44,815 nt of DNA, taken from contig CAZKAZ010000002.1 in the NCBI GenBank assembly GCA_964550765.1, forward strand, positions 1 to 44,815. Direction: 5' to 3'. The notes under the pieces were generated by a model. The model was not told the origin of the DNA, searched no databases, and saw only the letters and a list, made by a program, of their open reading frames with translations. Below are positions 3,906 through 35,180 of the stretch, piece by piece. The position numbers were made by a program, and so were the translations under genes. Origin of the DNA: an uncultured bacterium (lineage in GTDB: Bacteria; Deinococcota; Deinococci; Deinococcales; Trueperaceae). Each line of letters begins with the position of its first letter. Within the stretch, counting starts at the first letter, position 1.

Positions 3906-3958
3906 AGTGAAGGTGGTGCATGAGCACTATCTGCCCACCTTCGTGATGGTCTTGGCAG

Positions 3959-19458: not shown

Positions 19459-19669
19459 CACAAAGTGAGTGGGGTTTTTAATGAGTGAAGGGCGTCTAGC
19501 CCTTTAATCTGAGGACATATTGTGGCTCACACTTGAACCTATCCCCCGAACATGGGAATTGTGAGTTACCTTAATAACCCCCTACCATGAACGTGTCGCA
19601 GAACTGTCGCAACGCGTGTAGGTAGCGTGTACCCAAAGGGCATGTGTGGGGTATCAAAGGAGGCGTTTT

Positions 19670-19759
19670 ATGCGTGGTGATGATGACGTTAAGGCTCGAG
19701 GACGCCAGAAAAGTGCCGCACACAGTGCTAACGACGACTGTGTCATTGACCCTAGATGA
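19670..19759 (+). CDS. 29-codon small ORF (MRGDDDVKARGRQKSAAHSANDDCVIDPR) with near-ideal RBS; possible leader peptide
   Basis: SD AAGGAGG is 6 nt upstream of ATG at 19670. It sits about 170 bp upstream of the gene A start. No homology is claimed. Confidence 0.25.
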   Translation: MRGDDDVKARGRQKSAAHSANDDCVIDPR

Positions 19760-19774
19760 TTGAGGTGACAACTG

Positions 19775-19832
19775 ACGTGACGACCCTGACGACCCGTAAC
19801 CTGACGACCCATAACCTGACGACCCCGATGAA
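19775..19832. repeat. Direct-repeat cluster, four copies of TGACGACCC (two embedded in a 15-mer RTAACCTGACGACCC), 100-155 bp upstream of gene A
   Basis: The sequence reads GACGTGACGACCCTGACGACCCGTAACCTGACGACCCATAACCTGACGACCCCG. Confidence 0.5.
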
Positions 19833-19931
19833 GATTGAAGTAACGAGGGCGCTAGCAAGGAAGGAGTACCATTGCACGATGGCATTTTGTTGTTGTGTTC
19901 ATCATAAATACATAAAAATAGGAGATTTGTC

Positions 19932-22900
19932 ATGTTAAATGCAAAAACGACGCGTCAGCCGAAAGGTTCGCTTGTTAGCCTGCGTGCAGCGGGTCATGTT
20001 TTCGTGCTGGCTATCGTGCTTTTACTCAGTGCGTGTGGTGGTGATGGTGACGAGCCAGATATTGGTAGCGGACAGGGTACGCTAGCGGTCAGTATCACCG
20101 GTTTGCCCGCAGGTGCCGATGCCGATGTGAACGTGGTCGGCAGTGCTTTTAATCAAGTGTTAACAGGCACGAGCGCGCTGCTTGTCGATGTCGGCGGTTA
20201 CACCGTGAACGCGTCTGACGTAACAGCACAAGGTTATACCTTTACGGCTGACGTGACCCCTGTTGCTTTGAGTGTGGTAGAAGCGCAAGTGCGCACCGTT
20301 GAGGTGGTTTATGACGCTGTTCCTCGCGTGCGTGGAGGCAGCTTACCTGACATTGAAGCCGAAGAAGCCCAACGCGAAACCTTGAACCTTAACCCGCTCA
20401 TTGATGACTTTGAAAATGACACGTTGACGTTTACGGTGGTGGGTAATACCAACCCCAATGTCATCACTGCAACTATGACGAACGGCGTGTTGGCGGTGCA
20501 ACCACTTAGGGATGCTGTTAGTGGTGATGCTACGGTCACAACCCTGTTGACCATTCAAATCACTGATGACGCTGGCAATACGATTGACACCACCGTGGAA
20601 GTCATTGCTACCTATCAAGGTGATCAAGGTGGTGGCGGTAATGGTGGTAATGGTGACAATACGCCGCCAACGGTCAGTGGCGATTTGCCAGATATTCAAG
20701 TGGGTGCGGGCGCTGCCCCTATCACCGTTGATTTGGTGGGTGCATTCACTGACCCCGATGGCTTTAATACCCTCACCTTTGGGTCAACGAGTACTGATGT
20801 GACGGTAGCGACCTCAACAGCAGGTGCTGACAGCCTGACAGTGACATTCAATAACCCTGGCACGACCACCATTCGGGTGACTGCTACTGATGACGCGGGC
20901 GCACAAGTGAGCCAAAGTTTTCAAGTGGTCATTGTGGGAATCACCATTCCCAACGTCACCGGAAGCGTGGGTGATGACAGTGAAACCATCGACCTCGACG
21001 ACATTTTTGGTGGTCTAGGCGACAACCTCAGTTACACCGCTACGAGTAGCAACACCAGCGTGGTGACCGTGGCCATCGACGATGATGGCATCTTGACCAT
21101 CGACTTCGTAGGACCAGGCACGGCGGTTGTCACGGTGACAGCGCGTGACCCTGAAGGCAATATTGTCAGCCAAGTCAGTTTTACCGTCATAGTGGCCGCT
21201 GAAGGCGCTAACACTGGGCCGATTACTCGAGGTTTACCCAACATCATCGCCGAAGAAAATGAACCTGCTCGCACGTTTAACTTAGCGAACTTTTTTGATG
21301 ATGCCCAAGACGGCGGTAGCGGCCTCAGCTACGAAGCAGTGAGCACCAATGTCGGGGTGGCCACCGTGGGTGTGAACGGCACGCGTTTAACCATCGCTTT
21401 TGGTGTGGTTGGTGACACAACCATCAACGTCACGGCCACTGACAGTGAAGGTCTTAGTGTCACAGACGCGTTATTTGTCAATGTGGTGCCATCTTTTAAC
21501 AACACAGCGCCAGTAGCCACCGACGACACTGCCACGGCTATTGCCGGTATCAGTACCAATATCAATGTGCTTGCTAACGATAGTGATGTAGACAATCAAG
21601 CCTTGACCATCGACAGCACGAGCCAACCGAGCGCTGGCCAAGTTGAACGTAGTCAAAACCGCCTCATCTATACAGCGCCCGGTGCGTTTACGGGGCAGGT
21701 AACGTTTACCTACACCATCCGCGATACTTTTAGTGCGACTGATAGCGCCACGGTGACGGTAGATGTGGTGGCCAACACGGGTGTGCCCGTAGCGGTTAAC
21801 GATACAGCAACAACCAGTCAAAACACCGCTACCAACATTGGTACAGGTGTCCTGCTTGCCAACGATAGTGATCCCGATGCGGGTGACACCTTGACGGTAA
21901 CAGCCGTAGATGACACGGCGTCACAAGGTACGGCGGTACTCGCAGGCGCCATCGTGACGTACACACCAGCGACGGATTTTGTTGGTACAGACACGTTTAC
22001 TTATACCGTCAGTGACAGTGCGAGTAACACGGCTACAGGCACGGTGACGGTCACTGTCTCAGAAGGTAGTGGCGGTGGCGGTAATGCGCCCGCTATTGGC
22101 AGTTTCGCACCTGGAACGACGAATGCGACTGTCGGTACACCTGTTACCTTTACGTACAATTTTGCTAATCCAGAAACAGGCCCGTTTACCTGCACGTTTA
22201 CGCCCGGTGGTACGGGTACACCTGGTGCGGGTTTGTCGGGAACTGCTCCTAACTACACGGTCACGAACTGTGCAGGGCAAGGTAGTGTGACGTTTACGTA
22301 CAACAATGCAGGCGACCCTATTACAGTGACGTTTACGGCACAAAACAGTGGTGGCTCGAGCAACGCTACTGCCGACCTCACCGTCACCACAGATGGCGGC
22401 GGCGGCAACACCGCCCCAACAGCCGCTGATGACAGTGCCACAACCGACCAAGACCAAGCTGTCAGCGTTGATGTACTTGCCAATGACAGCGACAGTGACG
22501 GCAGTATTGTAGCTAGCAGTGTGGCAGTAACCAGCCAACCAACCAACGGCACGACCAACATCAACACCACCACGGGCGCCATTACCTACACGCCTGCAGC
22601 CGGGTTTACTGGTCAAGATAGTTTTACTTACACCGTTAACGACGACGCGGGGGCAACCTCCAACGCGGCGACTGTCACCGTGAGCGTGGAAACCGTTGCT
22701 GGTAACGAAACTATCAACCTCACCAGTGACTGCGATACAGCTTCCAACGTGGGGGATACTTGTACGGTCACCGTCAGCCTCGCGGGTAATGTTGCGCCCT
22801 TTGGTTTTGTGGGGATCAGTTTTGATATCGCCAACCCCAACTTCCAAATCAACGACGCCCAAGCTGCAGGGATTACCGCAGGTGGCACGGCAGGTTTAGG

Positions 22901-23111
22901 ACAAAACAACCGTACCGTGGCCATTATCACCTTAGCGGGCAACTTAATTGAGCCGCAAGAAAACGGCATCGTGGCGAGAATTATCTTTGAGCGCACCCAA
23001 GCGGGCGCATCGACGTTCACGGTCAGTGGTGCTGAACTTGGTGCCAACGCCGCCGACAGTGGTGCTAGTGACGTGGTGATTAGCGGCACATTTACCTTGG
23101 ATATTCCGTAA
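19932..23111 (+). CDS. giant surface lipoprotein A: lipobox signal, Big/cadherin-like (tandem-95/VCBS-type VLANDSD-DxDGDxLT) repeats, C-terminal cohesin-like module
   Basis: SD TAGGAG is 7 nt upstream. The signal peptide is ...VFVLAIVLLLSAC-GGDGDE (lipobox L-S-A-C). At least four roughly 95-aa repeats carry VLANDSD…D-x-L-T…YTP…F-G-D-FTYT. The C-terminal 140 aa show a cohesin-like strand pattern (GISFDIANPNFQI, GIVARIIFERTQAGASTFTVSG). Confidence 0.85.
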   Translation: MLNAKTTRQPKGSLVSLRAAGHVFVLAIVLLLSACGGDGDEPDIGSGQGTLAVSITGLPAGADADVNVVGSAFNQVLTGTSALLVDVGGYTVNASDVTAQGYTFTADVTPVALSVVEAQVRTVEVVYDAVPRVRGGSLPDIEAEEAQRETLNLNPLIDDFENDTLTFTVVGNTNPNVITATMTNGVLAVQPLRDAVSGDATVTTLLTIQITDDAGNTIDTTVEVIATYQGDQGGGGNGGNGDNTPPTVSGDLPDIQVGAGAAPITVDLVGAFTDPDGFNTLTFGSTSTDVTVATSTAGADSLTVTFNNPGTTTIRVTATDDAGAQVSQSFQVVIVGITIPNVTGSVGDDSETIDLDDIFGGLGDNLSYTATSSNTSVVTVAIDDDGILTIDFVGPGTAVVTVTARDPEGNIVSQVSFTVIVAAEGANTGPITRGLPNIIAEENEPARTFNLANFFDDAQDGGSGLSYEAVSTNVGVATVGVNGTRLTIAFGVVGDTTINVTATDSEGLSVTDALFVNVVPSFNNTAPVATDDTATAIAGISTNINVLANDSDVDNQALTIDSTSQPSAGQVERSQNRLIYTAPGAFTGQVTFTYTIRDTFSATDSATVTVDVVANTGVPVAVNDTATTSQNTATNIGTGVLLANDSDPDAGDTLTVTAVDDTASQGTAVLAGAIVTYTPATDFVGTDTFTYTVSDSASNTATGTVTVTVSEGSGGGGNAPAIGSFAPGTTNATVGTPVTFTYNFANPETGPFTCTFTPGGTGTPGAGLSGTAPNYTVTNCAGQGSVTFTYNNAGDPITVTFTAQNSGGSSNATADLTVTTDGGGGNTAPTAADDSATTDQDQAVSVDVLANDSDSDGSIVASSVAVTSQPTNGTTNINTTTGAITYTPAAGFTGQDSFTYTVNDDAGATSNAATVTVSVETVAGNETINLTSDCDTASNVGDTCTVTVSLAGNVAPFGFVGISFDIANPNFQINDAQAAGITAGGTAGLGQNNRTVAIITLAGNLIEPQENGIVARIIFERTQAGASTFTVSGAELGANAADSGASDVVISGTFTLDIP
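22690..23108 (+). other. cohesin-like beta-sandwich module at C-terminus of gene A (by-eye)
   Basis: By-eye alignment to the type-I cohesin consensus. VTVSLAGNV corresponds to V-x-V-x-IG, FDIANPNFQI to FxYDPxVLEI, and NGIVARIIFERTQAGASTFTVSG to DGVFAKIxxKVKSxAxGxxxITFxxVG. This needs HMM confirmation. Confidence 0.45.
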
Positions 23112-23125
23112 TGTTTTCAGCGTTT

Positions 23126-23146
23126 GAGGCAGTGTCATACTGCCTC
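23126..23146 (+). other. 8-bp stem hairpin (GAGGCAGT-gtcat-ACTGCCTC) in A-B intergenic spacer, no U-tract
   Basis: A perfect inverted repeat in the 61-bp spacer. It is a candidate RNA processing or stability element rather than a terminator. Confidence 0.3.
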
Positions 23147-23172
23147 ACCTTTAGAAACGAGAGGTTAGGTGT

Positions 23173-26100
23173 ATGAAGAAATACATCGTGATTGCGGTGC
23201 TGCTTGCTGTGCTTGCATCCTGCCGCCAAAGCGCCCCCCCAGTAGATGAAGCGCTCGTCGGCTACACCGTGCGAGCAGACGATGCCAGTTTAGCGACGAC
23301 GTTTGATGTCAGTTACGACCCTGCGCTGACGTTTGTAGGTGTCACCAGTGTGGGCGTCACCAGTCAACAGGGGGCGTTTTATGCTGCTGGTGCGCAAGAT
23401 GGTGTGGTGCGGGTAGCCAAGGTAGCCGCTGACGTGAGTGCGACTGAGGTGACCTTGGTTTTTCGAGGCACAGCAGGCACAGTTGCAGCAGGCACTGTGT
23501 CGCTCGAGACACCTGGGTTTCGTGGTAGCCAGCACGTCTTAGATACTCGCCCTGATATGCGCCAAGAAGCCTGGCTCGAGACCCAAGTGACTGTCCCCAG
23601 TGACGCCGTGCTCGAGGCTGCCTTTGCCAACAGTCCTTTGGGTGACTTTGATAACGACCAAACTTTTGAGTTTGCCGACGTGGTGGCTATTCTCAATATT
23701 TACTTAGAAAACACCAACATCAATAGCATCAGTGACTATCAACTTTATCATAGTGATATCAACTGCGACAACGAAGTGAGTTTTGCTGATGTCATTGCCG
23801 CGTTGAATAAGTTCTTGGGTAACTCGAGCCCTACCTTGCAACTGTGCCCTACGTCTGTCACTGCCGATGGCAGTACGGGTAGCGATATTGTCTTGGCAGG
23901 TAACATCGGCAGCGGATCGCTACCTACCATTAACGTGACTTATGAAGCGGGTGACCCGCAGGTGTTTACTGCCCCTAGCGGCAGCCCCGGTCAAGCTTAC
24001 GTGGTTGATCCAGCTACCCCACTTGGTACCTATAACGTGACCTTTGATGCGGGTACAGCGGGTAGTGAAACGGTGAGCGTGTTAGTGACGAGTTCTACTG
24101 CCAATACCCCGCCTACCGTCAGTGCCATCGACGACCAAACCATCAACGAAGACAGCCAAACTAGCCCCTTAGAATTCACCATCGGTGACATCCAAACCCC
24201 TGTTGATCAACTTATTGTCAACGCGTCTTCATCGGATACTACTATTATTCCCAATAACGCCCTCACCCTAGGTGGCGCTGGGGCTAACCGCACTATCGTG
24301 GTCGATCCTGCTGCCAACCAGTACACCAGCGGTACGCCCGTTACCATCACCGTGAGCGTACAAGACCTAGCGGGTGCTGTCACCGAAGAAACCTTTGATG
24401 TCACTGTGAACCCTGTAAATGACCCGCCGACGTTTCTCAACGCAGGCAACCAAAGTTTGCTCTCAGGTACCAACACCGAACAGGTCATTCCCAATTGGGC
24501 GTTCAATATTGACGTAGGCCCTAACGAACCCACCCAAAACGTGGCCGGGTTTGATGTCACCATTGTGTCGGGGCAAAGTTTGTTTGCCGTAGCGCCTACG
24601 ATTGGCAACAACGGTACCCTCACCTACACGCCTACGGGCAACGACGGCGTAGCGGTCGTCAACGTTAGCTTGCGTGACAATGGCGGCGTCGGTAACGGTG
24701 GTTCGGACACCTCGGCCACACAGCAATTTACCGTCACGGTGAGCGATAACTTAGCACCTACCATCACGCCCATTCCCAACCAAACCATCAACGAAGACAG
24801 CAGCACGGGTGTGCTCAACTTTACTGTGAACGACAACGAAGACGGGGCAATCGCAGGGGGCTTAGCTGGTTTGCAAGTCACTGCCAATTCATCCAATACC
24901 AGCATCATCCCGCCAAGTGGCATTGTGTTGGGACCTAGCCCCATTACGGGCAGCGCCCGCACCATCAATGTGACGCCTGCTGCCAACCAGTTTGGTGGCC
25001 CCGTGGTGATTACGGTCATTGTCGAAGATAGCCGAGGGGCAACCGCCCAGACGAGCTTCCAAGTGACAGTGAACCCTGTTAACGACGCCCCTGATTTTGA
25101 TTTGCCAGCCAGCACGAACCTGTCAACCATTACGGGTTACGGTGAACAGGTCATTCCGGGTTTTTTAACTAACTTTGACCCTGGCCCTGCCAACGAAGCC
25201 AGCCAGACCAAGCTCGAGACCATCATTAATGGTGTGCCTTCGGGTGTGTTTGCGGTACCTCCAGCCATTGACGCTTCGGGTACGTTGCGCTTTACGCCGG
25301 GTAGCAGCGCTGGTACGGCCAACTTAACAGTGCAAGTGCGCGACAGTGGTGGTACGGCCAACGGCGGCGTGAATCTATCTGCTGCCCAACCGTTCACTAT
25401 TGATGTGGTGGCCAACACCGTACCGACAGGCACGATTGCTGACGTGACCGCTCGAGCTGATGACCCCAATCAAACCATTGACTTAGCAGCGGCGTTTAAC
25501 GATCCTGATCAAGATGATGGGTCGCTCGAGTTTGCCATCACGTCAGTAGCCCCTGAGGGCATCGTCACGGCCACAGCGGATAACGGCAGCGATCAACTGA
25601 CGCTCGACTTCTTAGCAGACGGTACGGCCAACGTCACCGTCACGGCTACCGACATTGGTGGCGCAACGGGGTCAGTGACCTTCCAAGTCATCGTCAACAC
25701 GCCCCCGACAGCGGGCACCATCAATGACATCACCGTCAACGAAAACGCCCCTAACCGCGTGATTGACCTCGATGACGTGTTCAGTAATGCTGACCCGCTC
25801 ACCTACAGCGTCACCCAAAACACCGACCCGACCGTGGTGGCAACAAGCATCACTGGCAGTAACTTAACCCTTGACTTTGACGTGCCCGGGACGTCTACCA
25901 TCACCGTGCAAGCCGAAGAACCAGGTGGCGAAACGGCCTCGGTGACGTTCAACGTGCGCGTGAATGCTGCGCCCACAGTGGTGAGTCCCATTACCAACAT
26001 CACCGCCAACGTCAACGACCCTGATTTGACCTTTGAACTGTCTACCCGCTTCAATGACCCTGACGACCCCACGCTCACCTACACCATCGCGCAAAACACC

Positions 26101-27135
26101 TTTAGCAATGTGGTCGATGCCCGCTTGCAAAACGGTGCACAACTCGGTAGTTTGTTGCGGCTTAACTTCCTTACCCCTGGCGTCAGTCAAATCACCTTGC
26201 AAGCCGTAGACAGTAACGGCTTAACCGTCAGCAATAGCTTCCAAGTGACGGTCGTCGATAACCAACCCACCCTCACAACCGCTATTCCGAACATCACCGG
26301 CAACGAAGGTGAAAGTGAATCGCTCAACTTGGCCGATTACTTTGCTGACGTTGAAGATGATGCTGATGGTGTAGCACTCACCTACGCAGTGACGAATAAC
26401 ACCAATTTGAGTGTCGTGAGTACTGATATTACCGGTACGACCCTCGACCTTGATTTCTTGATGGGTGGCATCGCCGAGTTAACTGTCACGGCAACAGATA
26501 GCCAAGGGCAGTCGATTAGCACCAGCTTCTTTGTAACAGTCAACGGCATGCCGGACATCTTGCGCACACTCAATGACCTGATTCTCAATCAAGAAGACTT
26601 ACCCTTTGCGATCGACTTAACGGAATTCTTTACTGATGCCGAAGATGGGGGGGCAGGTTTAACCTATGGGGTCATTGGCAACACAGATAGCAACATTGTG
26701 GCGACGAATGTTGCTGGGGTGACGCTCAACCTCAACGCAGGTACGGCCATTGCTGAAGGTGGTATGACGACGATTACCATTCGGGCAACCGATACGGACG
26801 GTCAGTCCATCGACCAGACGTTTGATGTGACCATCACCAACCAAGCACCGACGGTCAGTCAGACGATTGGTAACCGCAGCGCCGCAGCAGGTGGTTCGAC
26901 GACGATTAACTTGAACTTGTACTTCAGCGACTTCGGTGACTTGAGCTATCGGGTGATTGGCAATACCAACACCACCGTAGTGACCAATCCTATTGGCAGT
27001 AATGTCGCGGGGAATGTGCTTGTCGTCAATGTGGCAGCCGGGGCGAACATTGGTCAGCAAGCGACGCTGACGGTACAAGCGCAAGACGCAGGTGGCTTAA
27101 CCGCCCAACAGTCGTTTGTAGTGACTGTTCAATAG
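23173..27135 (+). CDS. giant surface lipoprotein B: lipobox signal, cohesin-like N-module, dockerin module, then cadherin-like (CADG, NPVNDAP) and Big-like repeats
   Basis: The signal is MKKYIVIAVLLAVLASC (lipobox L-A-S-C). Residues 40-130 show FDVSYDPALTFVGV…DGVVRVAKVA…TLVFRG (cohesin-like). Residues 158-218 carry two canonical 12-residue Ca loops, each followed by a helix (dockerin). At least eight repeats of roughly 100 aa contain TVNPVNDPPTF / VNPVNDAPDF. Confidence 0.85.
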   Translation: MKKYIVIAVLLAVLASCRQSAPPVDEALVGYTVRADDASLATTFDVSYDPALTFVGVTSVGVTSQQGAFYAAGAQDGVVRVAKVAADVSATEVTLVFRGTAGTVAAGTVSLETPGFRGSQHVLDTRPDMRQEAWLETQVTVPSDAVLEAAFANSPLGDFDNDQTFEFADVVAILNIYLENTNINSISDYQLYHSDINCDNEVSFADVIAALNKFLGNSSPTLQLCPTSVTADGSTGSDIVLAGNIGSGSLPTINVTYEAGDPQVFTAPSGSPGQAYVVDPATPLGTYNVTFDAGTAGSETVSVLVTSSTANTPPTVSAIDDQTINEDSQTSPLEFTIGDIQTPVDQLIVNASSSDTTIIPNNALTLGGAGANRTIVVDPAANQYTSGTPVTITVSVQDLAGAVTEETFDVTVNPVNDPPTFLNAGNQSLLSGTNTEQVIPNWAFNIDVGPNEPTQNVAGFDVTIVSGQSLFAVAPTIGNNGTLTYTPTGNDGVAVVNVSLRDNGGVGNGGSDTSATQQFTVTVSDNLAPTITPIPNQTINEDSSTGVLNFTVNDNEDGAIAGGLAGLQVTANSSNTSIIPPSGIVLGPSPITGSARTINVTPAANQFGGPVVITVIVEDSRGATAQTSFQVTVNPVNDAPDFDLPASTNLSTITGYGEQVIPGFLTNFDPGPANEASQTKLETIINGVPSGVFAVPPAIDASGTLRFTPGSSAGTANLTVQVRDSGGTANGGVNLSAAQPFTIDVVANTVPTGTIADVTARADDPNQTIDLAAAFNDPDQDDGSLEFAITSVAPEGIVTATADNGSDQLTLDFLADGTANVTVTATDIGGATGSVTFQVIVNTPPTAGTINDITVNENAPNRVIDLDDVFSNADPLTYSVTQNTDPTVVATSITGSNLTLDFDVPGTSTITVQAEEPGGETASVTFNVRVNAAPTVVSPITNITANVNDPDLTFELSTRFNDPDDPTLTYTIAQNTFSNVVDARLQNGAQLGSLLRLNFLTPGVSQITLQAVDSNGLTVSNSFQVTVVDNQPTLTTAIPNITGNEGESESLNLADYFADVEDDADGVALTYAVTNNTNLSVVSTDITGTTLDLDFLMGGIAELTVTATDSQGQSISTSFFVTVNGMPDILRTLNDLILNQEDLPFAIDLTEFFTDAEDGGAGLTYGVIGNTDSNIVATNVAGVTLNLNAGTAIAEGGMTTITIRATDTDGQSIDQTFDVTITNQAPTVSQTIGNRSAAAGGSTTINLNLYFSDFGDLSYRVIGNTNTTVVTNPIGSNVAGNVLVVNVAAGANIGQQATLTVQAQDAGGLTAQQSFVVTVQ
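23641..23820 (+). other. dockerin (type-I-like) module within gene B
   Basis: Loop 1 is D-F-D-N-D-Q-T-F-E-F-A-D followed by VVAILNIYL. Loop 2 is D-I-N-C-D-N-E-V-S-F-A-D followed by VIAALNKFLG. Both fit D1-x-[DN]3-x-D5-…-D12 plus an amphipathic helix. Confidence 0.6.
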
Positions 27136-27146
27136 ACGTTTTCTCT

Positions 27147-27173
27147 GGGCTAGGTGTTGTGCCTAGCCCTTTT
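27147..27173 (+). terminator. Intrinsic terminator/attenuator hairpin between genes B and C (GGGCTAGG-tgttgtg-CCTAGCCC + TTTT)
   Basis: An 8-bp GC-rich perfect stem followed directly by T4, 12 nt after the gene B stop. It is probably a partial terminator that sets B:C stoichiometry. Confidence 0.5.
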
Positions 27174-27194
27174 GACACCTTAGGAGGTAACAAG

Positions 27195-27227
27195 GTGAAA
27201 CACGTAACACAAAGAGGTAGGCAATGA
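27195..27227 (+). other. 10-codon upstream ORF (VKHVTQRGRQ*) with strong SD, stop overlapping gene C start (ATGA)
   Basis: AGGAGG is 8 nt before GTG at 27195. Its TGA stop at 27225-27227 overlaps ATG at 27224. It may act as a translational-coupling leader. Confidence 0.25.
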
Positions 27228-30200
27228 ACATGCCTCGAGCCATCACACGCCTGCTCTGCTTAGGCGTTCTTGCCATGCTGGGGTCGCTGGCGCTAGCACA
27301 AACTTACACGTTTGTCGATACCGGATATGAGGTAACAGAAACCGATGTAAACCAAACGCTCAATGTGCGGGTGCGCCGTACGGGCGGCGGTGCGACCACC
27401 ACCCAAGTGTATGTGCGGGCAGCGGGCGGCCAAGTTAATGGCAACATCCTTGCCCCCGGTGGTGGCTTTGATGCGACAGTCACCTTCACGAGCGATACTA
27501 TCATCACAGTGCCTTTTACCATCATTGGTGATAACGTCACTGAACTGGATGTAGACAACCTCGCTGAGCTTCAATTCAGGTTTGTGGCATTACCTGGAGA
27601 CCCATTTGTACCGGCCAACGAAATTCCCATCATCCTTCGTGATGATGATGTGGCGCGGTACAGTTTTGCAAGTGCAACCTACACCCAAGCAGAAGGTGAT
27701 ACTGGTACTGCTGTTATTACCGTCACCGTCAATCGGGTGGGAGCTATCGGTGATGAAACCGTTGATATTCGCGTAGGTGACGGAGCTGGCGCTGTGGGTT
27801 TTGCGCTTTCTGGTTCAGATTTTACAGGTGGCCCTATCATCACTCGAGGATTCACGGGTACACAGGTCAGTCGTGATACGGGTGCTGATATTCAGATTAT
27901 TGGTGATTTTGACCTCGAGCCAGACGAAGTTATCCCGTTATCGTTTAGTAACTTTAGTGTGCGTGGTGAGCCAGGGGCTGTTCCGACGGCGACGATTACC
28001 ATCGTCAATGACGATCAGCGTATCGGCTTTAGTGATGCTAACTACGGCGTGCCTGAAAGTGCTGGCAATACCAATGTGGTTGTTTTAGAACGCGAAGGTG
28101 ATTTGAGTGTTGCGCAGACAGTGGAAGTCACGGCGACGGATATCAGCACAGATCCTGTGCCTGCTGACTACACAAGTGCGACCTTCACAACTACCTTTGG
28201 GGTAGGTCAAGCCACGGCTTCGCTGCTGATAGGTATTGTCGATGACACGTTAGCCGAGGGCGACGAAAGTTTGGAATTAGAAATTACTGCTGTAGACGGT
28301 GATAACACATCACCCTATATTGACGGTGCGAACGACACGGCTGTTCTGGTTATCGAAGACGATGACAGACCCACGTACCGCTTTGCGAGTGCTACTTACA
28401 GCGACCGTGAAGGTGATGCGCCAGCTACGATGGATATCAACGTGCGGGTGGAGCGTTCTGGGGCAACAGGCGCTGGTACGGTCATTGTCAACACCGTGGG
28501 TGGTACAGCGCTAGGTGGTGGCATTGATTACACGCTTGTTTCACCTGGTGCGGGTGTGGTGGTGACGCCCACGTCGGCTGAGCTGACATTTGCAGGCACA
28601 GACACGTTCAGAGAGTTTATCGTGCGTATCACAGGTGATAATACGTTTGAACCAGATGAGACGATTGTCTTTGAGATTTCAGGTGGTACCGGGGTCACAG
28701 GGGCAGAGATTGGTACGCCAGACAGCACGACGGTGACCATCGAGAACGACGAAAGCCGTTACCGCTTTTCTGCCAATGCTTACAGTGTCAATGAAGGCAA
28801 TCTCACTAATTTCACAAACGTGGTGACGTTAGTGCGTGAAGGTGACACCAATGCTGCTGAGACGATTGACTTGACTGTGTTGGCTGCTAGCACCGCTACT
28901 GCTGCTGATTATGTTGCGCCTGGTTCGGTGTTTTTTGCTGCCGGTCAGACCGAAGCAAGTGTGCCCATTCAAATTCTTGGCGATCGTGCTAGTGAAGATG
29001 ACGAGACGGTAGTGCTCGAGATTGATCCTGCTAGTGCTGGGGGAATTGAAGTTACCAACCCCGACACGGCTGTGCTGACCATTCAAAACGACGATGTGGC
29101 AACCTATCAATTTACGGCGGCCACGTATGACGTGCTCGAGGGCGATGTTACCGACACACCTGTCGTGGTGCAACTTACCCGCACGGGTGCTATTGATGAT
29201 GTTGAAACCGTCAACGTCAACATCACCGGCGGCAGTGCCACACTGGGTGTTGCTGCTCCTGCAGATGTCACCGACCCCGCTGGGCCAATTCCTGTAAACT
29301 TTGCAGCTGGTGATACTACTGCCCAAGTACCCATCGAAATTTTAGGTGATACTACCTTTGAACCCAACGAAACCGTTAACTTGGCGATTGCCAGCTTTAG
29401 CTTGAACGGGCAAGCAGGCGCGCAAAACACGGCCACGCTCACCATCAACAACGACGATGATGTGGCCATCTATGAATTCCAAAACGCAACCTACAGCATC
29501 TTAGAAGGTAATGCGCCTGCCACGGATGTGGTGATTGGCCAGTTGATTCGCTCTGGTGATACGACTGCTGCAGAAACGGTCACAATTAACATCAGTAGTG
29601 GCACGGGTACAGCGGGTGTCGATGTTGAAGCTGGCCCCATCACTGTGGCTTTTGCTGCCAATGACATCACGGCAGACATTGAGATTGACATCACAGGTGA
29701 AACGGGGTTTGAGGCTGACGAAACCATTAACCTCGCCATTGCTAGTACGAGCGGGGGCGGGCAAATCGGCACGCAAGATGACGCCGTGTTGACACTCACC
29801 AATGACGACCGACGTTATAGCTTTACGAATACGACCTATACCGTGGCAGAAGGTGCTGGTCCGGTCAACACCGTACAGTTAGTACGCGAAGGACCACCGC
29901 CCCCTGTGGCGTCACCTGAAACTGTGACAGTCACTGTCGGTGCAGGTAGTACGGCTGCGAATCCCGCGAACTACACAGGGTCGCTTGCAGCAACGTTCAC
30001 AGCGACAGGGCCTGCTACCGTACCGATTGGGCTTAATTTGCCCGATAACGCCACTGCAGATGGCGACACAACGCTCGAGTTAGAAATCCCCGCGACATTC
30101 GACCAAGGCGTGCCTAGCCAAGCGGTTGTGACCATTGCCGACGATGACGCTTCGTACCAATTCACGGCTGCTACGTTCAGCCAACCCGAGGGCAACGATA

Positions 30201-33200
30201 CTGCCAATGCCACCGCCGTCACCATCGAGCGTACAGGGGGCATCAATACAGCAGCGACGATTGTAGTGACAGCAGCCAATAGTGCCACTGCCCCTTCAGC
30301 CACCGCAGGAACTGACTTTACGGCAGGTGCGGTGAATGTCAACTTTGCTGCAGGTGAAGCGGTTGCTACGGTGCCCGTAGAGATTCTTGGTGACACCGCC
30401 ATCGAACCCGATGAAAACATTGACCTCACAATTGACGCTGCTACTCTGCCAGCAGGTAGCACGCCGGGCACGCAGAATACAACGCGTTTGACACTGCTCA
30501 ATGACGATGGTGTCGCCTCGTTTAGTTTCACCTCAGCAACCTACGAGGTAACCGAAACCAACACCAACAACCTTGCGACTAACTTGGTGACGATTACCCG
30601 CACAGACCCCGTGCCAGCAGCGGATGTGACGGTGAATTATGTTGCACCCACCACGCCACCTAGTCCTAGTGCCAGTACGGCGGTTGAAGGTGATGACTTC
30701 TTTGTGCAAGATGCGCTCGTGCCCAACCCTGTGACGTGTACCCCTGTGGGTGCAACAGCCAATCGGGTGTTCCCTTGTACGGTGCGTTTTGCAGCTGGTG
30801 AAGCCACGGCGGTGTTGCCTATTACCATCGTGGGTGATACCACCGCAGAAGTGTCTGAGCGTATTGTTTTGACCTTCAACAATGGCAATATTGCCCCAGT
30901 AGCACCTGCGGTTGTCTCGCCTGGCGTAGCGACAACCCCCAATACAACTACTCTTACCATCGCTGATAACGATAGTCCTGCAGGTGCTGACTTAGAAGTC
31001 TTAAACGGCATTTCACCTACTAGCCCGCTGATTTTGAACGGCAGCAATAACCCCATCAACTTCCCGGTCACTTCGCTAGGCGTACCCGTCACACGTGAAT
31101 TTACCTTGCGCAATGCAGGTGATAGCAATTTGAATATCTTTAGCATCAACTTGCCAGCAGGGTTTAGTTTGGTGGGGGGTTTCCCCAGTGTGCTCGAGGG
31201 CAATAGTAGCGAAACCATCACCATTCGTTATGACGCTGCCACAACAGGCACGAGCGGTGGCAACGTAGAAATTGCCAGCAGTGACTTTTTGGATAGTCCT
31301 TATGTGTTCCCGATTCGCGGGTCGCTCGAGACATCCGAAATTGACGTCGTTTTTGATGGTCAATCGCTCGTAGACGGTAACGCCACAGTGGACTTTGGCA
31401 GCACCACCATCGGCACGCCAGTCACCGTGACGCTCACCATCAATAACCCTAGTGGTGTCGCTTTGCTACTCGGTAATCTACAACTCCCTGAGGGTTACAG
31501 CCTCGTGGGTGAATTCCCTGATAGCGTGCCTGCCAACAGCAGCACCGATGTCACCTTGCAACTTGATGCTGCTGCCGCTGGTACGTTCACAGGTACGGTG
31601 TCGTTTGATAGCAACGACGAAGACGAAAGTACCTTTAGCTTTACGGCTACGGGCACAGTCACTGAACAACCTGAACCTGAAGTGCGCGTTAGTGGGCCTT
31701 TAGGGACTATTGAAAGCGGTGGTAGTTACGACTTTGGTGTCAGTGCGTTGGGTGAAAGCCCCGCAGCCACATTCACGGTCACCAACGGCGGCACGGCGGA
31801 CTTAACCTTAGACCGGGCGTCGCTGACCAGTTCGCTAGCAGGTACGGCGTTTAGCGTCAGTAGTAACTTTGCTGAAACCACCCTCGAGCCAAGTGCGTCC
31901 ACTACCTTTGAAATTAGCTTGGACGCCAGTAGCGCCGGCACGTTCAGTACGACCCTTAGTTTTACTAACAACGACAGCGACGAAAACCCCTTCGGAATCG
32001 CCTTATCAGGTGAAGTGTCCGCCCCAGAAATCGAAGTGCGCCAGGATGCACGCGTGCTGCAAGACGGCAGTAGCGTCCCAGTTGACTTTGGCGCGACCAC
32101 CTTAAATGCCCCGGTGACAGTGACGTTTACTGTCAACAACCTAGGCAGTGTGCCGCTCAGTTTGGGTGGTTTGGACGTGCCAGTGGGCTTTGCCTTAGAC
32201 GGTGACTTCCCCACGTCTGTTGACGGCAACGGCAGCGCCACGTTTAGTTTGGTGTTAGAAGCCACCTCGCTGGGTTCGTTTGACGGGCAAGTGTCCTTTG
32301 AAAACAACGACAGCGACGAAAACCCCTTCACGTTTAGGGTACAAGGTGTGGTGGACGCAGCAGAATTGACTGTGCTTGATGGCTTGCTGACTGTCCCCAA
32401 CGGCTCGACGGTTGATTTTGGCAGTACCGTCCAAGGCAACGCCGTCAACAAGATTTTCACCATCCGCAACGACGGCGGCGCGACCTTGCAAGTCGATAAC
32501 TTGGATACCCTGCCAGCAGGCTTCGCGTTGCTCTCACCGGAACCGTTTACCTTTGAATTAGCCCCCAACCAACAAGCCACCTTCACGCTGTCGCTCACGG
32601 CAGAAACCGTCGGTGACTTCAGTGGGGCGTTGCAATTTATCTCTAACGACACCACGGCTAGCCCCTTCAGCATCACCTTAGAAGGGCGCGTCACGGCAGA
32701 ACCTGCCCCAGAAATCAGCGTTTCTAGCGAATCTGGCGCGGTTGCTAGCGGTAGTGGTTTCAGCTTCGATGACGTGCCCGTCGGCGAAGACGCCACGGAA
32801 ACCTTCACTATCCGTAACACTGGTACTGCGCCCCTCTCGCTGGGTTCGGTGACGGTGTCAGGTGATAGTTTCGTGCTCGCAGGCGATATTGGTACGACCA
32901 GCCTCGAGGCAGGCGCGTCCACAACCTTTGATATTCGTTTTGAAGCCGATGAAGAAGGCGAAGCGCTTGGGTCTGTTTCCATCGATAACGGTGACGAAAA
33001 CGAAAACCCTTACGTCTTCGACTTAGACGGTACGGCGTTTGTGCCTAGCCCCGAAGTGGCGGTGCGCGCTAGCGACAACAGCGTCATTGCCGACGGCAGC
33101 AGCCTTGATATTGGCACGGTGGTAACGGGTGCGGATGCTTCAGTGACGTTTACGGTGACGAACGAAGGCCAAGCCACCTTGACCCTCGGCGACTTGGCGA

Positions 33201-35128
33201 TTTCGGGTGACGGGTTTGCCATCAGTAATGGGTTTGGTAGCACCACGCTCGAGCCAGACGCTAGCACCACCTTTGCCGTGCGCTTTAGTGCCGGTGAAGA
33301 TGAAGGCGAAGCGTCGGGTGAAGTGACGTTTACCAACAACGACAGTGACGAAAACCCCTATAACATCACGCTAACTGCTGATGTGGAAGTGCCTCAGCCT
33401 GAAATTGCTGTGGTGCGCGGGGGGGCACTCATTGCCGATGGTGGTACGTTTGACTTTGGTGATGTGGCTGTGGGTCAAGCACGTAATATTGACTTTACGG
33501 TGCAAAACAATGGCACGGCGACCCTCAACCTCGAGCCACTAGAAATCACCGGCGAAGGTTTCTCCCTCGAGACTCCCTTTGCTAGTACAACGCTCGAGCC
33601 AGAAGCCTCCACAACGTTCACCCTTCGTTTCAACAGTGCTGACTTAGCCCCTGGCGAGTACAGCGGCAACATCAGCTTTGCCAACAACGACAGCGACGAA
33701 AACCCCTACAACGTTGCGTTAGCTGCCAACGTGTTCGTGCCTACGCCAGAAATTGCCGTCACAGACCCCAACGGTCAAGCCCTCGAAGATGGTGGCAGTG
33801 TGTCATTACAAGGCGTTGGTGTGGGTCAACCCTCTTCGGCAACGTTTACCGTCTTCAACGAAGGTGACGCTAACTTGACGCTCAATGCGGCATCTTTGGC
33901 AAGCTCCTTGGCAGGCACGCCCTTCAGTGTGCGTGATTCGTTCGCACAAAGTACCCTCGCTCCCGGAGAAGACACCCAATTTACCCTCGGTGTCAATACC
34001 AGCAGTGCAGGGACGTTCTCAGCCGATGTGGCGTTTAATAACAACGACCGCGACGAAAACCCCTTCAACATCAGTTTGTCTATCACCATCAGTGCTGGCC
34101 CTGAAGTTGACGTCCGTGATGGCAATATCTCCATCCCCGATGGCAGCGTCACGGCAGTGAACATTGGTGAAACGACGGTTGGTACGCCTATTACCCGCAC
34201 CTTCTCTGTAATTAACGCAGGCGGTGCAACCCTCACATTGGGTAACTTCCAAATCGACAACAGCGCGTTTACGCTCGTTGGTACGCCGCCAGCTAGCTTG
34301 GCTCCTGGTCAAAGCGGCAGTTTGGTGATTCAACTCAACGCCGTCAGTGCAGGTACACCCGTTGCGCAAGTGTCTTTCACCAACAGCGACAGCGACGAAA
34401 GCCCCTATACCTTCACAGTGCGCGGCACAGTCACGACCTCTGGTAACGGCGAACGAGTGGTCATCCGCGCTGGCAATAACCCACCGCCTACGACCATTAC
34501 CGCTAACCCCGGTGATAGCAACGTGGCTGTGTTGCAAGCGTTACTTAGCCTCGAGGGCGACATTGCCGCCCGCATGACCCGCTTTGATGTGACCGTGTTT
34601 GAACTCTTGGGTGGTGTTCGCACGCCCGTGACTAGCGCTCAAAACTTTGCTGGCTTTGCTTCAGCCAAGCTCTACCAAGACAGTAACAACAACGGTCAAG
34701 TAGACGTCAGCGATGCCTTACTTGCTACCACAACAACCTTTGACGGTAACAACTTGGTGTTTAACCTCAACACGCCACTGCCGCTCAGCAACACGAGCGT
34801 TACCAACGTGCTGGTCACTTATGACTTCTTAGCAGATTTCGGTACAAACCGCTTGCCCGTAGTGGCACTCGCTAGCCTCCTGCCCTTGGTGCTGCTTGCC
34901 CTCAAGCGTTGGCGCCGGGTGAGCTTGCTGATGTTACTTGTCATCTTCATGGCCGCTTGTGGTGGTGATGATGGTGGTGGTGATGGTGGCGTTACGCCTC
35001 CGCCGCCTGCGGGTGTGCAGTATCAAGCCTTCTTGGTGGATGCCGCAGCCGAGTCCAATGGGCAGACGCTCCCTGTTGACTTTACTGCAGGTGATATTCC
35101 CGGTAGTATCGTCGGCTTGCAAGACTAA
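27224..35128 (+). CDS. 2634-aa giant secreted adhesin-like protein: Sec signal, about 10 Calx-beta domains, about 10 ASH / choice-of-anchor-D-like repeats ending NNDSDENP[FY], C-terminal TM + KRWRR anchor-like segment with in-frame lipobox-like extension
   Basis: The signal peptide is MNMPRAITRLLCLGVLAMLGSLALA-Q. Calx-beta motifs recur (RYSFASATYTQAEGD…, TYRFASATYSDREGD…, RYRFSANAYSVNEGN…, and others). Roughly 110-aa repeats with DFG-x-V-x-VG…N-G…L and a terminal [VLI]SF-x-NNDSDENPF/Y occur 10 times. The C-terminus reads NRLPVVALASLLPLVLLALKRWRRVSLLMLLVIFMAACGGDDGGGDGG…. Confidence 0.85.
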   Translation: MNMPRAITRLLCLGVLAMLGSLALAQTYTFVDTGYEVTETDVNQTLNVRVRRTGGGATTTQVYVRAAGGQVNGNILAPGGGFDATVTFTSDTIITVPFTIIGDNVTELDVDNLAELQFRFVALPGDPFVPANEIPIILRDDDVARYSFASATYTQAEGDTGTAVITVTVNRVGAIGDETVDIRVGDGAGAVGFALSGSDFTGGPIITRGFTGTQVSRDTGADIQIIGDFDLEPDEVIPLSFSNFSVRGEPGAVPTATITIVNDDQRIGFSDANYGVPESAGNTNVVVLEREGDLSVAQTVEVTATDISTDPVPADYTSATFTTTFGVGQATASLLIGIVDDTLAEGDESLELEITAVDGDNTSPYIDGANDTAVLVIEDDDRPTYRFASATYSDREGDAPATMDINVRVERSGATGAGTVIVNTVGGTALGGGIDYTLVSPGAGVVVTPTSAELTFAGTDTFREFIVRITGDNTFEPDETIVFEISGGTGVTGAEIGTPDSTTVTIENDESRYRFSANAYSVNEGNLTNFTNVVTLVREGDTNAAETIDLTVLAASTATAADYVAPGSVFFAAGQTEASVPIQILGDRASEDDETVVLEIDPASAGGIEVTNPDTAVLTIQNDDVATYQFTAATYDVLEGDVTDTPVVVQLTRTGAIDDVETVNVNITGGSATLGVAAPADVTDPAGPIPVNFAAGDTTAQVPIEILGDTTFEPNETVNLAIASFSLNGQAGAQNTATLTINNDDDVAIYEFQNATYSILEGNAPATDVVIGQLIRSGDTTAAETVTINISSGTGTAGVDVEAGPITVAFAANDITADIEIDITGETGFEADETINLAIASTSGGGQIGTQDDAVLTLTNDDRRYSFTNTTYTVAEGAGPVNTVQLVREGPPPPVASPETVTVTVGAGSTAANPANYTGSLAATFTATGPATVPIGLNLPDNATADGDTTLELEIPATFDQGVPSQAVVTIADDDASYQFTAATFSQPEGNDTANATAVTIERTGGINTAATIVVTAANSATAPSATAGTDFTAGAVNVNFAAGEAVATVPVEILGDTAIEPDENIDLTIDAATLPAGSTPGTQNTTRLTLLNDDGVASFSFTSATYEVTETNTNNLATNLVTITRTDPVPAADVTVNYVAPTTPPSPSASTAVEGDDFFVQDALVPNPVTCTPVGATANRVFPCTVRFAAGEATAVLPITIVGDTTAEVSERIVLTFNNGNIAPVAPAVVSPGVATTPNTTTLTIADNDSPAGADLEVLNGISPTSPLILNGSNNPINFPVTSLGVPVTREFTLRNAGDSNLNIFSINLPAGFSLVGGFPSVLEGNSSETITIRYDAATTGTSGGNVEIASSDFLDSPYVFPIRGSLETSEIDVVFDGQSLVDGNATVDFGSTTIGTPVTVTLTINNPSGVALLLGNLQLPEGYSLVGEFPDSVPANSSTDVTLQLDAAAAGTFTGTVSFDSNDEDESTFSFTATGTVTEQPEPEVRVSGPLGTIESGGSYDFGVSALGESPAATFTVTNGGTADLTLDRASLTSSLAGTAFSVSSNFAETTLEPSASTTFEISLDASSAGTFSTTLSFTNNDSDENPFGIALSGEVSAPEIEVRQDARVLQDGSSVPVDFGATTLNAPVTVTFTVNNLGSVPLSLGGLDVPVGFALDGDFPTSVDGNGSATFSLVLEATSLGSFDGQVSFENNDSDENPFTFRVQGVVDAAELTVLDGLLTVPNGSTVDFGSTVQGNAVNKIFTIRNDGGATLQVDNLDTLPAGFALLSPEPFTFELAPNQQATFTLSLTAETVGDFSGALQFISNDTTASPFSITLEGRVTAEPAPEISVSSESGAVASGSGFSFDDVPVGEDATETFTIRNTGTAPLSLGSVTVSGDSFVLAGDIGTTSLEAGASTTFDIRFEADEEGEALGSVSIDNGDENENPYVFDLDGTAFVPSPEVAVRASDNSVIADGSSLDIGTVVTGADASVTFTVTNEGQATLTLGDLAISGDGFAISNGFGSTTLEPDASTTFAVRFSAGEDEGEASGEVTFTNNDSDENPYNITLTADVEVPQPEIAVVRGGALIADGGTFDFGDVAVGQARNIDFTVQNNGTATLNLEPLEITGEGFSLETPFASTTLEPEASTTFTLRFNSADLAPGEYSGNISFANNDSDENPYNVALAANVFVPTPEIAVTDPNGQALEDGGSVSLQGVGVGQPSSATFTVFNEGDANLTLNAASLASSLAGTPFSVRDSFAQSTLAPGEDTQFTLGVNTSSAGTFSADVAFNNNDRDENPFNISLSITISAGPEVDVRDGNISIPDGSVTAVNIGETTVGTPITRTFSVINAGGATLTLGNFQIDNSAFTLVGTPPASLAPGQSGSLVIQLNAVSAGTPVAQVSFTNSDSDESPYTFTVRGTVTTSGNGERVVIRAGNNPPPTTITANPGDSNVAVLQALLSLEGDIAARMTRFDVTVFELLGGVRTPVTSAQNFAGFASAKLYQDSNNNGQVDVSDALLATTTTFDGNNLVFNLNTPLPLSNTSVTNVLVTYDFLADFGTNRLPVVALASLLPLVLLALKRWRRVSLLMLLVIFMAACGGDDGGGDGGVTPPPPAGVQYQAFLVDAAAESNGQTLPVDFTAGDIPGSIVGLQD
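27299..30980 (+). repeat. Calx-beta domain array (about 10 copies) in gene C
   Basis: A recurrent Y-x-F-x-x-x-x-Y-x-V-x-E-G / …DDDxA pattern repeats every 110-125 aa. Confidence 0.6.
30985..34440 (+). repeat. ASH / choice-of-anchor-D-like repeat array (10 copies) in gene C; contains six copies of a conserved 25-nt DNA stretch AACAACGACAGCGACGAAAACCCCT
   Basis: Each unit ends [VLI]SF-x-NNDSDENP[FY]. The conserved DNA stretch is seen near 31967, 32296, 33340, 33686, 34034 and 34381 (degenerate at 34381). Confidence 0.6.
34855..34920 (+). other. C-terminal anchor-like segment of gene C: hydrophobic helix LPVVALASLLPLVLLAL + basic cluster KRWRR
   Basis: It has the tripartite sorting-signal architecture (short motif, TM, Arg/Lys cluster). 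It is not PEP-CTERM, LPXTG or GlyGly-CTERM by sequence. Confidence 0.4.
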
Positions 35129-35153: not shown

Positions 35154-35180
35154 AGGCTCTCAGCAATGAGGGCCTTTTTG
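35154..35180 (+). terminator. Rho-independent terminator of the giant-protein operon (AGGCTCTCA-gcaa-TGAGGGCCT + T5)
   Basis: A 9-bp stem (one G:U pair) with a GNRA-like loop and a T-tract, 26 nt after the gene C stop. Confidence 0.6.

Follow-up and report, generated by a model that had tools for sequence, protein, structure and literature searches.

Few known protein-protein connectors are as strong as cohesin-dockerin pairs, which are widely used in synthetic biology, while to our knowledge their natural roles outside cellulosomes are almost unknown. Cohesin and dockerin modules outside cellulosomes are already recognized as a class (Peer et al. 2009, as cited in PMC10066038; ANME/SRB adhesins in PMC10553843; PDB 2ozn, 2vo8, and 2xdh). 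In C. perfringens, such modules belong to the glycoside-hydrolase toxins of a Gram-positive pathogen (NagJ/GH84C and the NanJ cohesin; PDB 2ozn, 2jh2, 2w1n, and 2vo8), and in the archaeon Archaeoglobus fulgidus, a non-cellulosomal cohesin (PDB 2xdh) has a dockerin partner. In ANME archaea and their sulfate-reducing partners, as well as in dockerin-rich giant ORFs of Omnitrophota, cohesins and dockerins are combined with Ig-like, cadherin, and CARDB domains in putative adhesins, for which a role in cell-cell contact has been proposed (PMC10553843, PMC10066038).

Here we analyzed three adjacent genes, A, B, and C, in a 44.8-kb window (the whole stretch of DNA under study). On the basis of sequence comparison and structure models, we propose that the lipid-anchored, repeat-rich surface proteins encoded by A and B carry a cohesin-dockerin pair of the non-cellulosomal kind, in which calcium-dependent docking of the A cohesin onto the B dockerin is the most likely mechanism, and that C encodes a co-transcribed adhesin; we give this reading an even chance. 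Since the non-cellulosomal class is known, the locus is a variant of it and not a new principle, although the original prediction had regarded such a trio as uncharacterized. PMC10553843 and PMC10066038 describe neither the lipoprotein cohesin-dockerin-Ig cassette of B nor the A-type cohesin gene paired with it.

Organization of the locus and export signals

Genes A (19932-23111, forward strand; 1059 aa), B (23173-27135, forward; 1320 aa), and C (27224-35128, forward; 2634 aa) are indeed the three co-directional giant ORFs that had been predicted, with exactly the same boundaries, and the anticipated Shine-Dalgarno sequences precede all of them (AGGAG, GAGAGG, and AGAGG, respectively). Both A and B are annotated as 'hypothetical'. 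The gaps are only 61 nt between A and B and 88 nt between B and C, and fold prediction places a hairpin in each, instead of the single internal attenuator originally claimed. The A-B hairpin (23126..23146, forward), with the stem GAGGCAGT/ACTGCCTC, lacks a T-run, and the B-C hairpin (27147..27169, forward) is followed by TTTTG and may act as a weak terminator or attenuator. Both stems are kept in a close relative (L003, ~80% identity), where the A-B stem carries one compensatory change of an inner pair, from T-A to C-G. On the 3' side of C, a third predicted hairpin with a 9-bp stem, a GCAA loop, and a following UUUU (35154..35175, forward) is the likely operon terminator. The three hairpins have modest z-scores (-1.8 to -2.05). 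None of them was listed by the consensus promoter/terminator scan, which reported fewer sites than in shuffled controls; the terminal terminator of the original prediction is represented by a hairpin with a T-run, but not by a consensus hit. Taken together, the short gaps, the Shine-Dalgarno sequences, and the conserved hairpins support the reading of A-B-C as an operon. Upstream, a 1.09-kb non-coding leader and promoter region of A (18842..19931, forward) separates A from the divergent aceE. It contains no conserved ORF and includes several blocks nearly identical to the relative L003, although the surrounding DNA has diverged. The consensus scan detected one sigma-70-like site in it, at 18875-18903, and neither Rfam families nor tRNAs were found in this leader or across the window.

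As judged from their sequences, A and B are predicted bacterial lipoproteins. Both signal peptides end in the lipobox pattern [LVI][ASTVI][GAS]C, namely LLSAC in A (LSA before Cys35) and LASC in B (LAS before Cys17; 18 bits against Pfam LPAM_1, for which the cut-off is 20). C has a signal peptide of the signal-peptidase-I type (aa 1-25), with cleavage predicted between SLALA and QTYTF. The lipoprotein signals of A and B and the Sec signal of C that had been proposed can therefore all be read from the sequence.

The dockerin of B

The region of B that had been proposed to be a dockerin (residues 149-222; 23617..23838, forward) contains two Ca loops, DFDNDQTFEFAD (aa 158-169) and DINCDNEVSFAD (aa 195-206), 37 residues apart. 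The helices that come after the two loops are homologous, and the repeats, of 23 residues each, share 11 of 23 positions; this is the architecture of a type I dockerin, in which two tandem segments of ~22 residues each consist of a 12-residue EF-hand-like loop and a subsequent helix. B alone scores 13.3 bits against Pfam PF00404 (E=0.1; gathering threshold 22.9), and three relatives exceed this threshold (P0058, 28.8 bits; P0059, 28.5; P0066, 23.5), with matches at E≤0.01 in 10 of the 22 cassette members. When the cassette-family profile was compared with solved dockerins, the match reached E=1.7e-6. Furthermore, the AlphaFold model of this region (pLDDT >90) adopts a compact helical dockerin fold, which superimposes with 62 of 62 residues onto a type I dockerin of C. 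thermocellum (1.2 Å). The paired-loop pattern also recurs in ~20 relatives, and the canonical Ca ligand positions 1, 3, 5, 9, and 12 are kept in both loops across the family. Judged by these profile and model results, B(149-222) is a real dockerin, as originally predicted, and the only one in the window; it would presumably depend on calcium and bind a cohesin.

It could be argued that any likeness to cohesins and dockerins arises by chance in low-complexity repeats rich in D, N, T, and V. Neither full-length A nor full-length B matches PF00963 or PF00404 at E≤1, and in the search with these models that the original prediction had envisaged, the excised modules gave no cohesin match and a sub-threshold dockerin match only; the evidence comes from the family profiles and predicted folds instead. 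Moreover, a regular expression finds four loop-like strings in B, one in A, and two in C; as such strings are common in D/N/T-rich proteins, a lone loop means little. The paired and duplicated loops of B are a different matter, since the profile and fold results contradict a chance origin of the dockerin, and we consider this explanation very improbable.

The cohesin and the three-domain cassette of B

The N-terminal module of B, a cohesin-like beta module that we call B-type (residues ~28-122; 23254..23538, forward), includes the strings that had been quoted for it. A word-indexed homology search with the N-terminus of B returned nothing, and relatives thus had to be sought by exhaustive HMMER searching. 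An exhaustive phmmer search of 1.84 billion proteins yielded a cassette family of 32 representatives at E≤1e-3. B alone has no match to Pfam Cohesin. The family profile over the B-type module, on the other hand, matched cohesins only and no other fold (the NagJ cohesin with E=6e-4, NanJ with 0.07, and A. fulgidus with 0.08), and two of the 22 cassette relatives match Pfam Cohesin. One relative, L005:5462-6100 (family HMM 8.6e-27), passes this model with 24.7 bits against a gathering score of 24.1. By transitive homology at the sequence level, we regard the N-terminal module of B as a cohesin; the earlier assignment is thus upheld by the family profile and by this relative, but not by B itself.

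The third domain is an Ig-like domain (residues 222-306; 23836..24090, forward), which is probably disulfide-linked to the dockerin. Cohesin, two-loop dockerin, and Ig-like domain would thus make up a compact cassette within the first ~290 mature residues of B, for which the three-domain model gives a pTM of 0.82; the rest of B, ~1000 aa, consists of Ig/cadherin-like repeats. The protein's own cohesin adjoins the dockerin in every family member, and the passengers of some members are SASA carbohydrate esterase, PKD, VWD, and WD40 domains. The mature part starts at the lipobox Cys in 22 of 22 cassette proteins. Of two Cys pairs, one co-varies and the other is invariant; these pairs and the lipobox starts support an extracytoplasmic location.

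The C-terminal module of A

A consists mainly of a stalk of ~880 aa, in which domain-model scans confirmed the predicted tandem-95/cadherin-like repeats (Big_9, 6.7e-62; Cadherin_5, 6.9e-33; tandem-95, 2.5e-42), and terminates in a diverged cohesin-fold module, here called A-type (residues 919-1059; 22686..23108, forward). The strand strings quoted in the original prediction are present, the Cys pair C934/C944 is invariant, and the predicted fold is a nine-stranded beta jelly-roll, in a model of low confidence (pLDDT 61; 4-sequence alignment). The module has no Pfam or NCBIfam match at E≤10, and comparisons with PDB sequences, by the single sequence and by 4- and 6-sequence profiles, recovered no cohesin. 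A word-indexed homology search with its alignment returned nothing, and hhalign, run profile against profile, gave no significant match between the A-type and B-type modules (probability <1%). One of six relatives matches Pfam Cohesin, with E=0.0033. The model thus points to a very diverged cohesin fold, and the cohesin claimed for A is retained on the strength of the predicted fold and of this relative, although A itself gives no significant match to PF00963.

Alternatively, the folds may have been kept and binding lost, with the dockerin as a Ca-stabilized spacer and the beta modules as stalk or tip domains of three independent adhesins that share an operon. In line with this, A and B lie below the Pfam thresholds, EF-hand-like loops are frequent in such proteins, and many non-cellulosomal cohesin- and dockerin-like modules are without a demonstrated partner (Peer et al. 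2009, cited in PMC10066038). In contrast, the dockerin is nearly invariant in the L003 ortholog, where the flanking module diverges, and is the most conserved part of B in this comparison, while the Ca ligands are retained in both loops. The adjacency of A and B and the fusion described below also argue against a loss of binding, which we consider unlikely.

Pairing of A and B across genomes

A-like lipoproteins with an A-type end are encoded directly upstream of a B-like gene in four other organisms (L003, L005, L006, and L007), and in L008, nothing but an IS630-type transposase lies between the A-like and B-like genes. Furthermore, in P0076 (L004), the B-type cassette and an A-type cohesin are fused within one 520-aa protein. 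Against such a coupling, an A-type cohesin is missing upstream at two B-like loci, L010/L012 and L013. Beyond this locus, C accompanies the pair in just one case, that of the close relative L003, and the trio originally presented as a unit thus reduces to the A-B pair. From these gene-order comparisons, the A-B adjacency kept across distant bacteria is judged to be a conserved unit; together with the fusion it argues for a functional link, and the side-by-side genes make it probable that the modules lock onto each other at the cell surface, in a role that has nothing to do with cellulose breakdown.

In the assembly that we propose, the distal cohesin of A would dock in a Ca-dependent manner onto the dockerin of B, and would thereby make a single surface structure of both proteins, whether these belong to one cell or to different cells. 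The cohesin partner, the need for calcium, the location at the surface, and the role in adhesion are all putative. Several points weigh against A-B docking: no cohesin is significantly similar in sequence to the A module, the model of this module is of low confidence, the cassette modeled with a pTM of 0.82 is compatible with a dockerin already engaged within its own molecule, and, with both proteins lipid-anchored and the dockerin near the membrane, the tip of A must either bend back or reach another cell.

The dockerin of B may instead bind B's own cohesin, either as an intramolecular clasp that stiffens the membrane-proximal base or so as to connect neighboring B molecules into chains or a lattice; the A module would then be a terminal ligand-binding tip or bind a dockerin elsewhere in the genome. 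The constant position of the cohesin beside the dockerin and the pTM of the cassette model are compatible with this arrangement, but it leaves unexplained why an A-type gene lies directly upstream in five loci and why the two are fused in P0076, and we hold it to be a serious, if somewhat doubtful, possibility. Binding of the own cohesin and A-B docking are not mutually exclusive.

Gene C

C is a giant repeat protein in which the predicted domains were confirmed, with Calx-beta repeats in the N-terminal half (9.1e-56; 187.4 bits against a cut-off of 27; seven stretches) and choice-of-anchor D repeats in the C-terminal half (NF012200; 4.8e-108; 355.2 bits against 45; ten stretches); it also matches HYDIN/VesB Ig. 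Neither a cohesin nor a dockerin was detected in C. The isolated Ca loop reported near its end, DSNNNGQVDVSD (aa 2486-2497), is present, but it belongs to a different, uncharacterized conserved domain (residues 2399-2538; 34418..34837, forward). This domain has no Pfam, NCBIfam, or PDB sequence match; two beta-helix proteins encoded directly upstream of the L010 B-like gene carry a homologue at their C-termini (29-39% identity), and another occurs in L012. The lone loop was thus not accepted as a dockerin remnant, since the conserved domain around it is a distinct one, in which neither a second repeat nor any dockerin or cohesin signal was found.

The remaining tail (residues 2545-2634; 34856..35125, forward), as read from the sequence, comprises a TM helix, KRWRR, a second hydrophobic stretch ending in a lipobox (FMAAC before GGDDGG), and a further 55 aa. 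The NCBIfam model NF058595 (lipo-invert putative C-terminal anchoring domain) matches across the TM helix, KRWRR, and the lipobox stretch, with 20.7-21 bits (E=3e-4 to 4e-4); as the cut-off is 37, the tail was not accepted as a member. C would be a co-transcribed giant adhesin of the Calx-beta/choice-of-anchor D kind, which its own C-terminal tail would fix in the membrane.

Discussion

If the A-B pairing is real, the locus would provide a new orthogonal connector pair and a model for the joining of lipid-anchored giant adhesins on uncultured bacteria. It offers a testable case, with adjacent genes that each carry a module, are paired across distant genomes, and are fused in one. As the standard domain models miss these modules, and only 32 representatives were found in 1.84 billion proteins, they are probably under-counted in adhesin-rich genomes.

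A broader and rather improbable extension is that the cohesin-dockerin-Ig cassette serves as a hitherto unrecognized, membrane-proximal docking hub for separately exported giant proteins, with A-type cohesins docking onto the dockerin, and proteins with the C-tail domain (C 2399-2538, with its half-dockerin-like Ca loop) onto the cohesin. The A-B-C operon would then build one multi-protein fiber or lattice, and the SASA esterase, PKD, VWD, and WD40 passengers would be displayed through the same system, in a cellulosome-like display unrelated to cellulose.

In agreement with the original prediction, domain scans of A, B, C, and ten flanking proteins detected neither glycoside hydrolases nor CBMs, and a setting of polysaccharide degradation was likewise not found. 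A cellulosome was rejected, as there is no GH or CBM, each protein has one cohesin, and the window has one dockerin. Compared with cellulosomal adaptor and anchoring scaffoldins, such as those of the Acetivibrio cellulolyticus ScaB dockerin-ScaC cohesin pair (PDB 4uyp), the locus has no GH, CBM, SLH, or multi-cohesin scaffoldin, and instead combines an N-terminal lipid anchor with one cohesin and one dockerin per protein. The C. perfringens toxin modules share 9-11% identity with those described here, which reside in Ig/cadherin-like lipoproteins without an enzyme domain and for which binding is only putative. The A. fulgidus cohesin, linked to the present family by weak E-values, is found in another protein context without a lipoprotein cassette. 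The putative adhesins of ANME archaea, their partners, and Omnitrophota, like the present proteins, are known from genome or expression data only; standard domain models suffice for their recognition, whereas the modules here are sub-threshold. Finally, C is a clear member of the choice-of-anchor D (NF012200)/Calx-beta giants, and differs from them in its unusual end, composed of the uncharacterized domain, the TM helix, and the internal lipobox.

Operon organization and signals

The ORF calls placed three co-directional giant genes on the forward strand, exactly at the coordinates and lengths originally predicted: A (window 19932-23111, 1059 aa), B (23173-27135, 1320 aa) and C (27224-35128, 2634 aa), with gaps of 61 nt (A-B) and 88 nt (B-C) and a Shine-Dalgarno sequence at all three starts. 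The claimed export signals likewise held, as lipoboxes LLSAC (Cys35) in A and LASC (Cys17) in B and a signal-peptidase-I type signal in C. The operon is bounded by the pyruvate dehydrogenase genes aceE/aceF, which are transcribed divergently, and by the housekeeping genes Band_7, PSP1, ABC transporter and DprA. JGI metagenomes 3300040790 and 3300040801 also contain the window DNA, as does a 137-kb NCBI contig. The predicted internal attenuator and terminal terminator stood in part: fold prediction gave a hairpin in each gap (23126-23146; 27147-27169, then TTTTG) and one with a T-run 3' of C (35154-35175), but the z-scores were modest and a consensus scan listed none of the three. The ~80%-identical relative locus L003 keeps both intergenic stems, and in one of them a T-A pair is replaced by C-G, a compensatory change.

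Upstream of A, a 1.09-kb non-coding leader (window 18842-19931; L003 6518-7616) contains blocks near-identical to L003 amid diverged DNA, for example at 19331-19362, 19457-19510, 19541-19567, 19644-19708 and 19857-19934. This conservation points to regulatory elements, or to a leader that is long and structured; an Rfam search of the region matched no family. Gene callers also report a 60-aa ORF in this region (19756-19938). Direct repeats, GACGACCC(N)TAACCT (19779-19826), which the window has and L003 lacks, fall within this ORF, and it is therefore unlikely to be a real gene.

The cohesin-dockerin cassette of B

We collected relatives of B by searching 1.84 billion representative proteins exhaustively with HMMER (E<=1e-3). 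The search found 32, and about 20 of them start with a common series of elements, namely lipobox Cys, beta module, linker, FANYPLGD, two DxNxDGxIDxxD loops ~35 residues apart, YQLYHAD and an LQV(A/C)P...LVGNAGN domain. The hmmscan check proposed earlier left B itself below the Pfam Dockerin_1 cut-off (13.3 versus 22.9 bits), and its best PDB match by sequence was a Ruminococcus dockerin (E=0.045), but the model was matched by 10 of 22 of these proteins, three of which exceeded the gathering score. Furthermore, the family profile matched solved dockerins in the PDB, with A. cellulolyticus ScaB at the top (E=1.7e-6), and the two repeats of B agree in 11 of their 23 positions. We regard the dockerin of B (residues 149-222), which the original reading proposed, as established in terms of homology and predicted fold. 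In the L003 ortholog, this module is nearly unchanged and the adjoining one carries substitutions and an indel.

The N-terminal module (~28-122) of the family profile matched only cohesins in the PDB, namely C. perfringens NagJ (E=6e-4), NanJ (0.07) and A. fulgidus (0.08). Pfam Cohesin was matched by 2 of the 22 cassette relatives, and a further relative, L005:5462-6100, exceeded its gathering score (24.7 versus 24.1 bits) while matching the cassette family HMM at 8.6e-27. By this transitive homology, we accept the module as a shortened member of the cohesin family, in agreement with the strand pattern originally noted.

Cys198 (window 23764-23766) is residue 4 of the second calcium loop of the dockerin, and Cys225 (23845-23847) lies in the LQ(L/V)CP linker, where the Ig-like domain begins. 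The two co-vary perfectly over the 22 relatives of the cassette alignment A2 (both in 9, neither in 13, mixed in none), which suggests a disulfide joining the dockerin to the next domain. This covariation, the invariable cohesin-dockerin-Ig order and the high pTM with which the three domains were modelled all favour the main rival of the A-B docking proposed below, in which the dockerin would bind the adjoining B cohesin, intramolecularly or between B molecules. We consider this rival rather unlikely.

The C-terminal module of A and the A-B gene pair

For A residues 919-1059, domain, PDB and profile comparisons gave no significant sequence similarity to cohesins or to the B module; one of six relatives reached Pfam Cohesin (E=0.0033). 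The case for a cohesin fold, as predicted at this end, is good but not conclusive. At the start of the module (S-D-C...G-D-T-C), Cys934 (window 22731-22733) and Cys944 (22761-22763) are invariant in the six relatives of alignment A6 and probably form a disulfide.

Gene order provides the strongest new argument that A and B are functionally linked. In the paired loci, a B-like cassette gene is immediately preceded by the gene of an A-like lipoprotein, which is built of PKD and Big_9/cadherin repeats and closes with this module (S-x-C...VG-x-TC-x-V-x-V, with an invariant Cys pair). Such pairs occur in L003, in L005 (assembly GCA_039034155.1), at two separate loci of one MAG labelled Trueperaceae (L006 and L007) and in a second such MAG (L008), where an IS630-type transposase alone lies between the two genes. 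In addition, a 520-aa protein of L004 (P0076) combines an N-terminal cassette with a C-terminal A-type module. These modules are only 24-31% identical to the window proteins, so the gene arrangement has persisted through long divergence. The conserved unit is A-B rather than the three genes of the original prediction, as C follows the pair in L003 only. The B-like genes of L010/L012 and L013 are without an A-type neighbour, and the passengers on the cassette in relatives include SASA carbohydrate esterases, PKD, VWD, PPC and WD40 domains.

At L003 (7617-14854 of a 664-kb ENA contig), the A ortholog is split into two ORFs and the B ortholog into four; because the pieces are collinear with A and B at 77-96% identity, the splits look like frameshift errors of long-read assembly rather than real gene decay. 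L005 carries four related genes in series, a 233-aa ORF (199-900), an A-like lipoprotein and two B-like genes, in a layout that resembles a small scaffoldin-like cluster. The 233-aa ORF shows two cohesin-like repeats by eye, and matched neither the A6 HMM nor Pfam. Tn3 and IS630-type transposases adjoin the pairs of the Trueperaceae-labelled MAGs. The L006-L008 loci have 37-40% G+C and cultured Truepera is G+C-rich, so the label may be loose.

Repeat stalks and the C-terminal end of C

Domain scans recovered the predicted repeats: Big_9, Cadherin_5 and tandem-95 in the stalk of A, and seven Calx-beta and ten choice-of-anchor D matches (the latter 355 bits, cut-off 45) in C; past its N-terminus, B gave weak Big_9 signals only. 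As also predicted, no glycoside hydrolase or carbohydrate-binding module was found in the operon or the ten flanking proteins scanned.

C residues 2399-2538 (window 34418-34837) form a conserved uncharacterised domain with a calcium loop, KLYxDxNxNGxVD, and no Pfam, NCBIfam or PDB sequence match. Homologous domains end two beta-helix proteins directly upstream of a B-like gene in L010 (~1545-1929 and ~3852-4232) and the upstream ORF in L012 (~133-513), so that the cassette is accompanied by C-terminal domains of a second type as well. The tail of C (residues 2545-2634, window 34856-35125) comprises a TM helix, PVVALASLLPLVLLAL, KRWRR, a second hydrophobic stretch that includes a full lipobox, VSLLMLLVIFMAAC followed by GGDDGGGDGG, with 55 residues beyond. 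In effect, C has a lipoprotein signal embedded in its C-terminal end. The lipobox resembles that of A (LLSAC followed by GGDGDEPD). The tail scored below threshold (21 versus 37 bits) against NCBIfam NF058595, 'lipo-invert putative C-terminal anchoring domain', a term not mentioned in our literature search.

Proposed docking and comparison with known systems

We favour, at about even odds, a calcium-dependent docking of the distal cohesin of A onto the dockerin of B. Two repeat proteins, each lipid-anchored, would thereby be linked in a single surface structure, and the co-expressed C would act as a giant adhesin with an anchor of its own, the C-terminal tail. Because the B dockerin is membrane-proximal and the A cohesin distal, the tip of A would have to bend back or reach another cell; the cellular location depends on the envelope type. 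Docking of A onto B and self-docking of B are compatible and can coexist.

The locus is not a cellulosome, because the defining enzymes, carbohydrate-binding module and multi-cohesin scaffoldin are absent. It groups with the non-cellulosomal cohesin-dockerin modules, which are catalogued over three domains of life according to Peer et al. 2009 (PMID 19025568), as cited in PMC10066038. Those of C. perfringens toxins and A. fulgidus, whose PDB entries were matched here, are structurally characterised, and cohesin/dockerin modules of ANME/SRB consortia and Omnitrophota have been proposed as adhesins (PMC10553843, PMC10066038). The original observation is confirmed and its interpretation is supported in part: it keeps its modules, real or probable, and loses the trio as its unit, and the cohesin-dockerin principle outside cellulosomes is already known. 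What is new is the lipoprotein cohesin-dockerin-Ig cassette, the diverged cohesin that the neighbouring lipoprotein carries at its tip as the putative partner, and the conserved A-B pairing together with the fusion of both.
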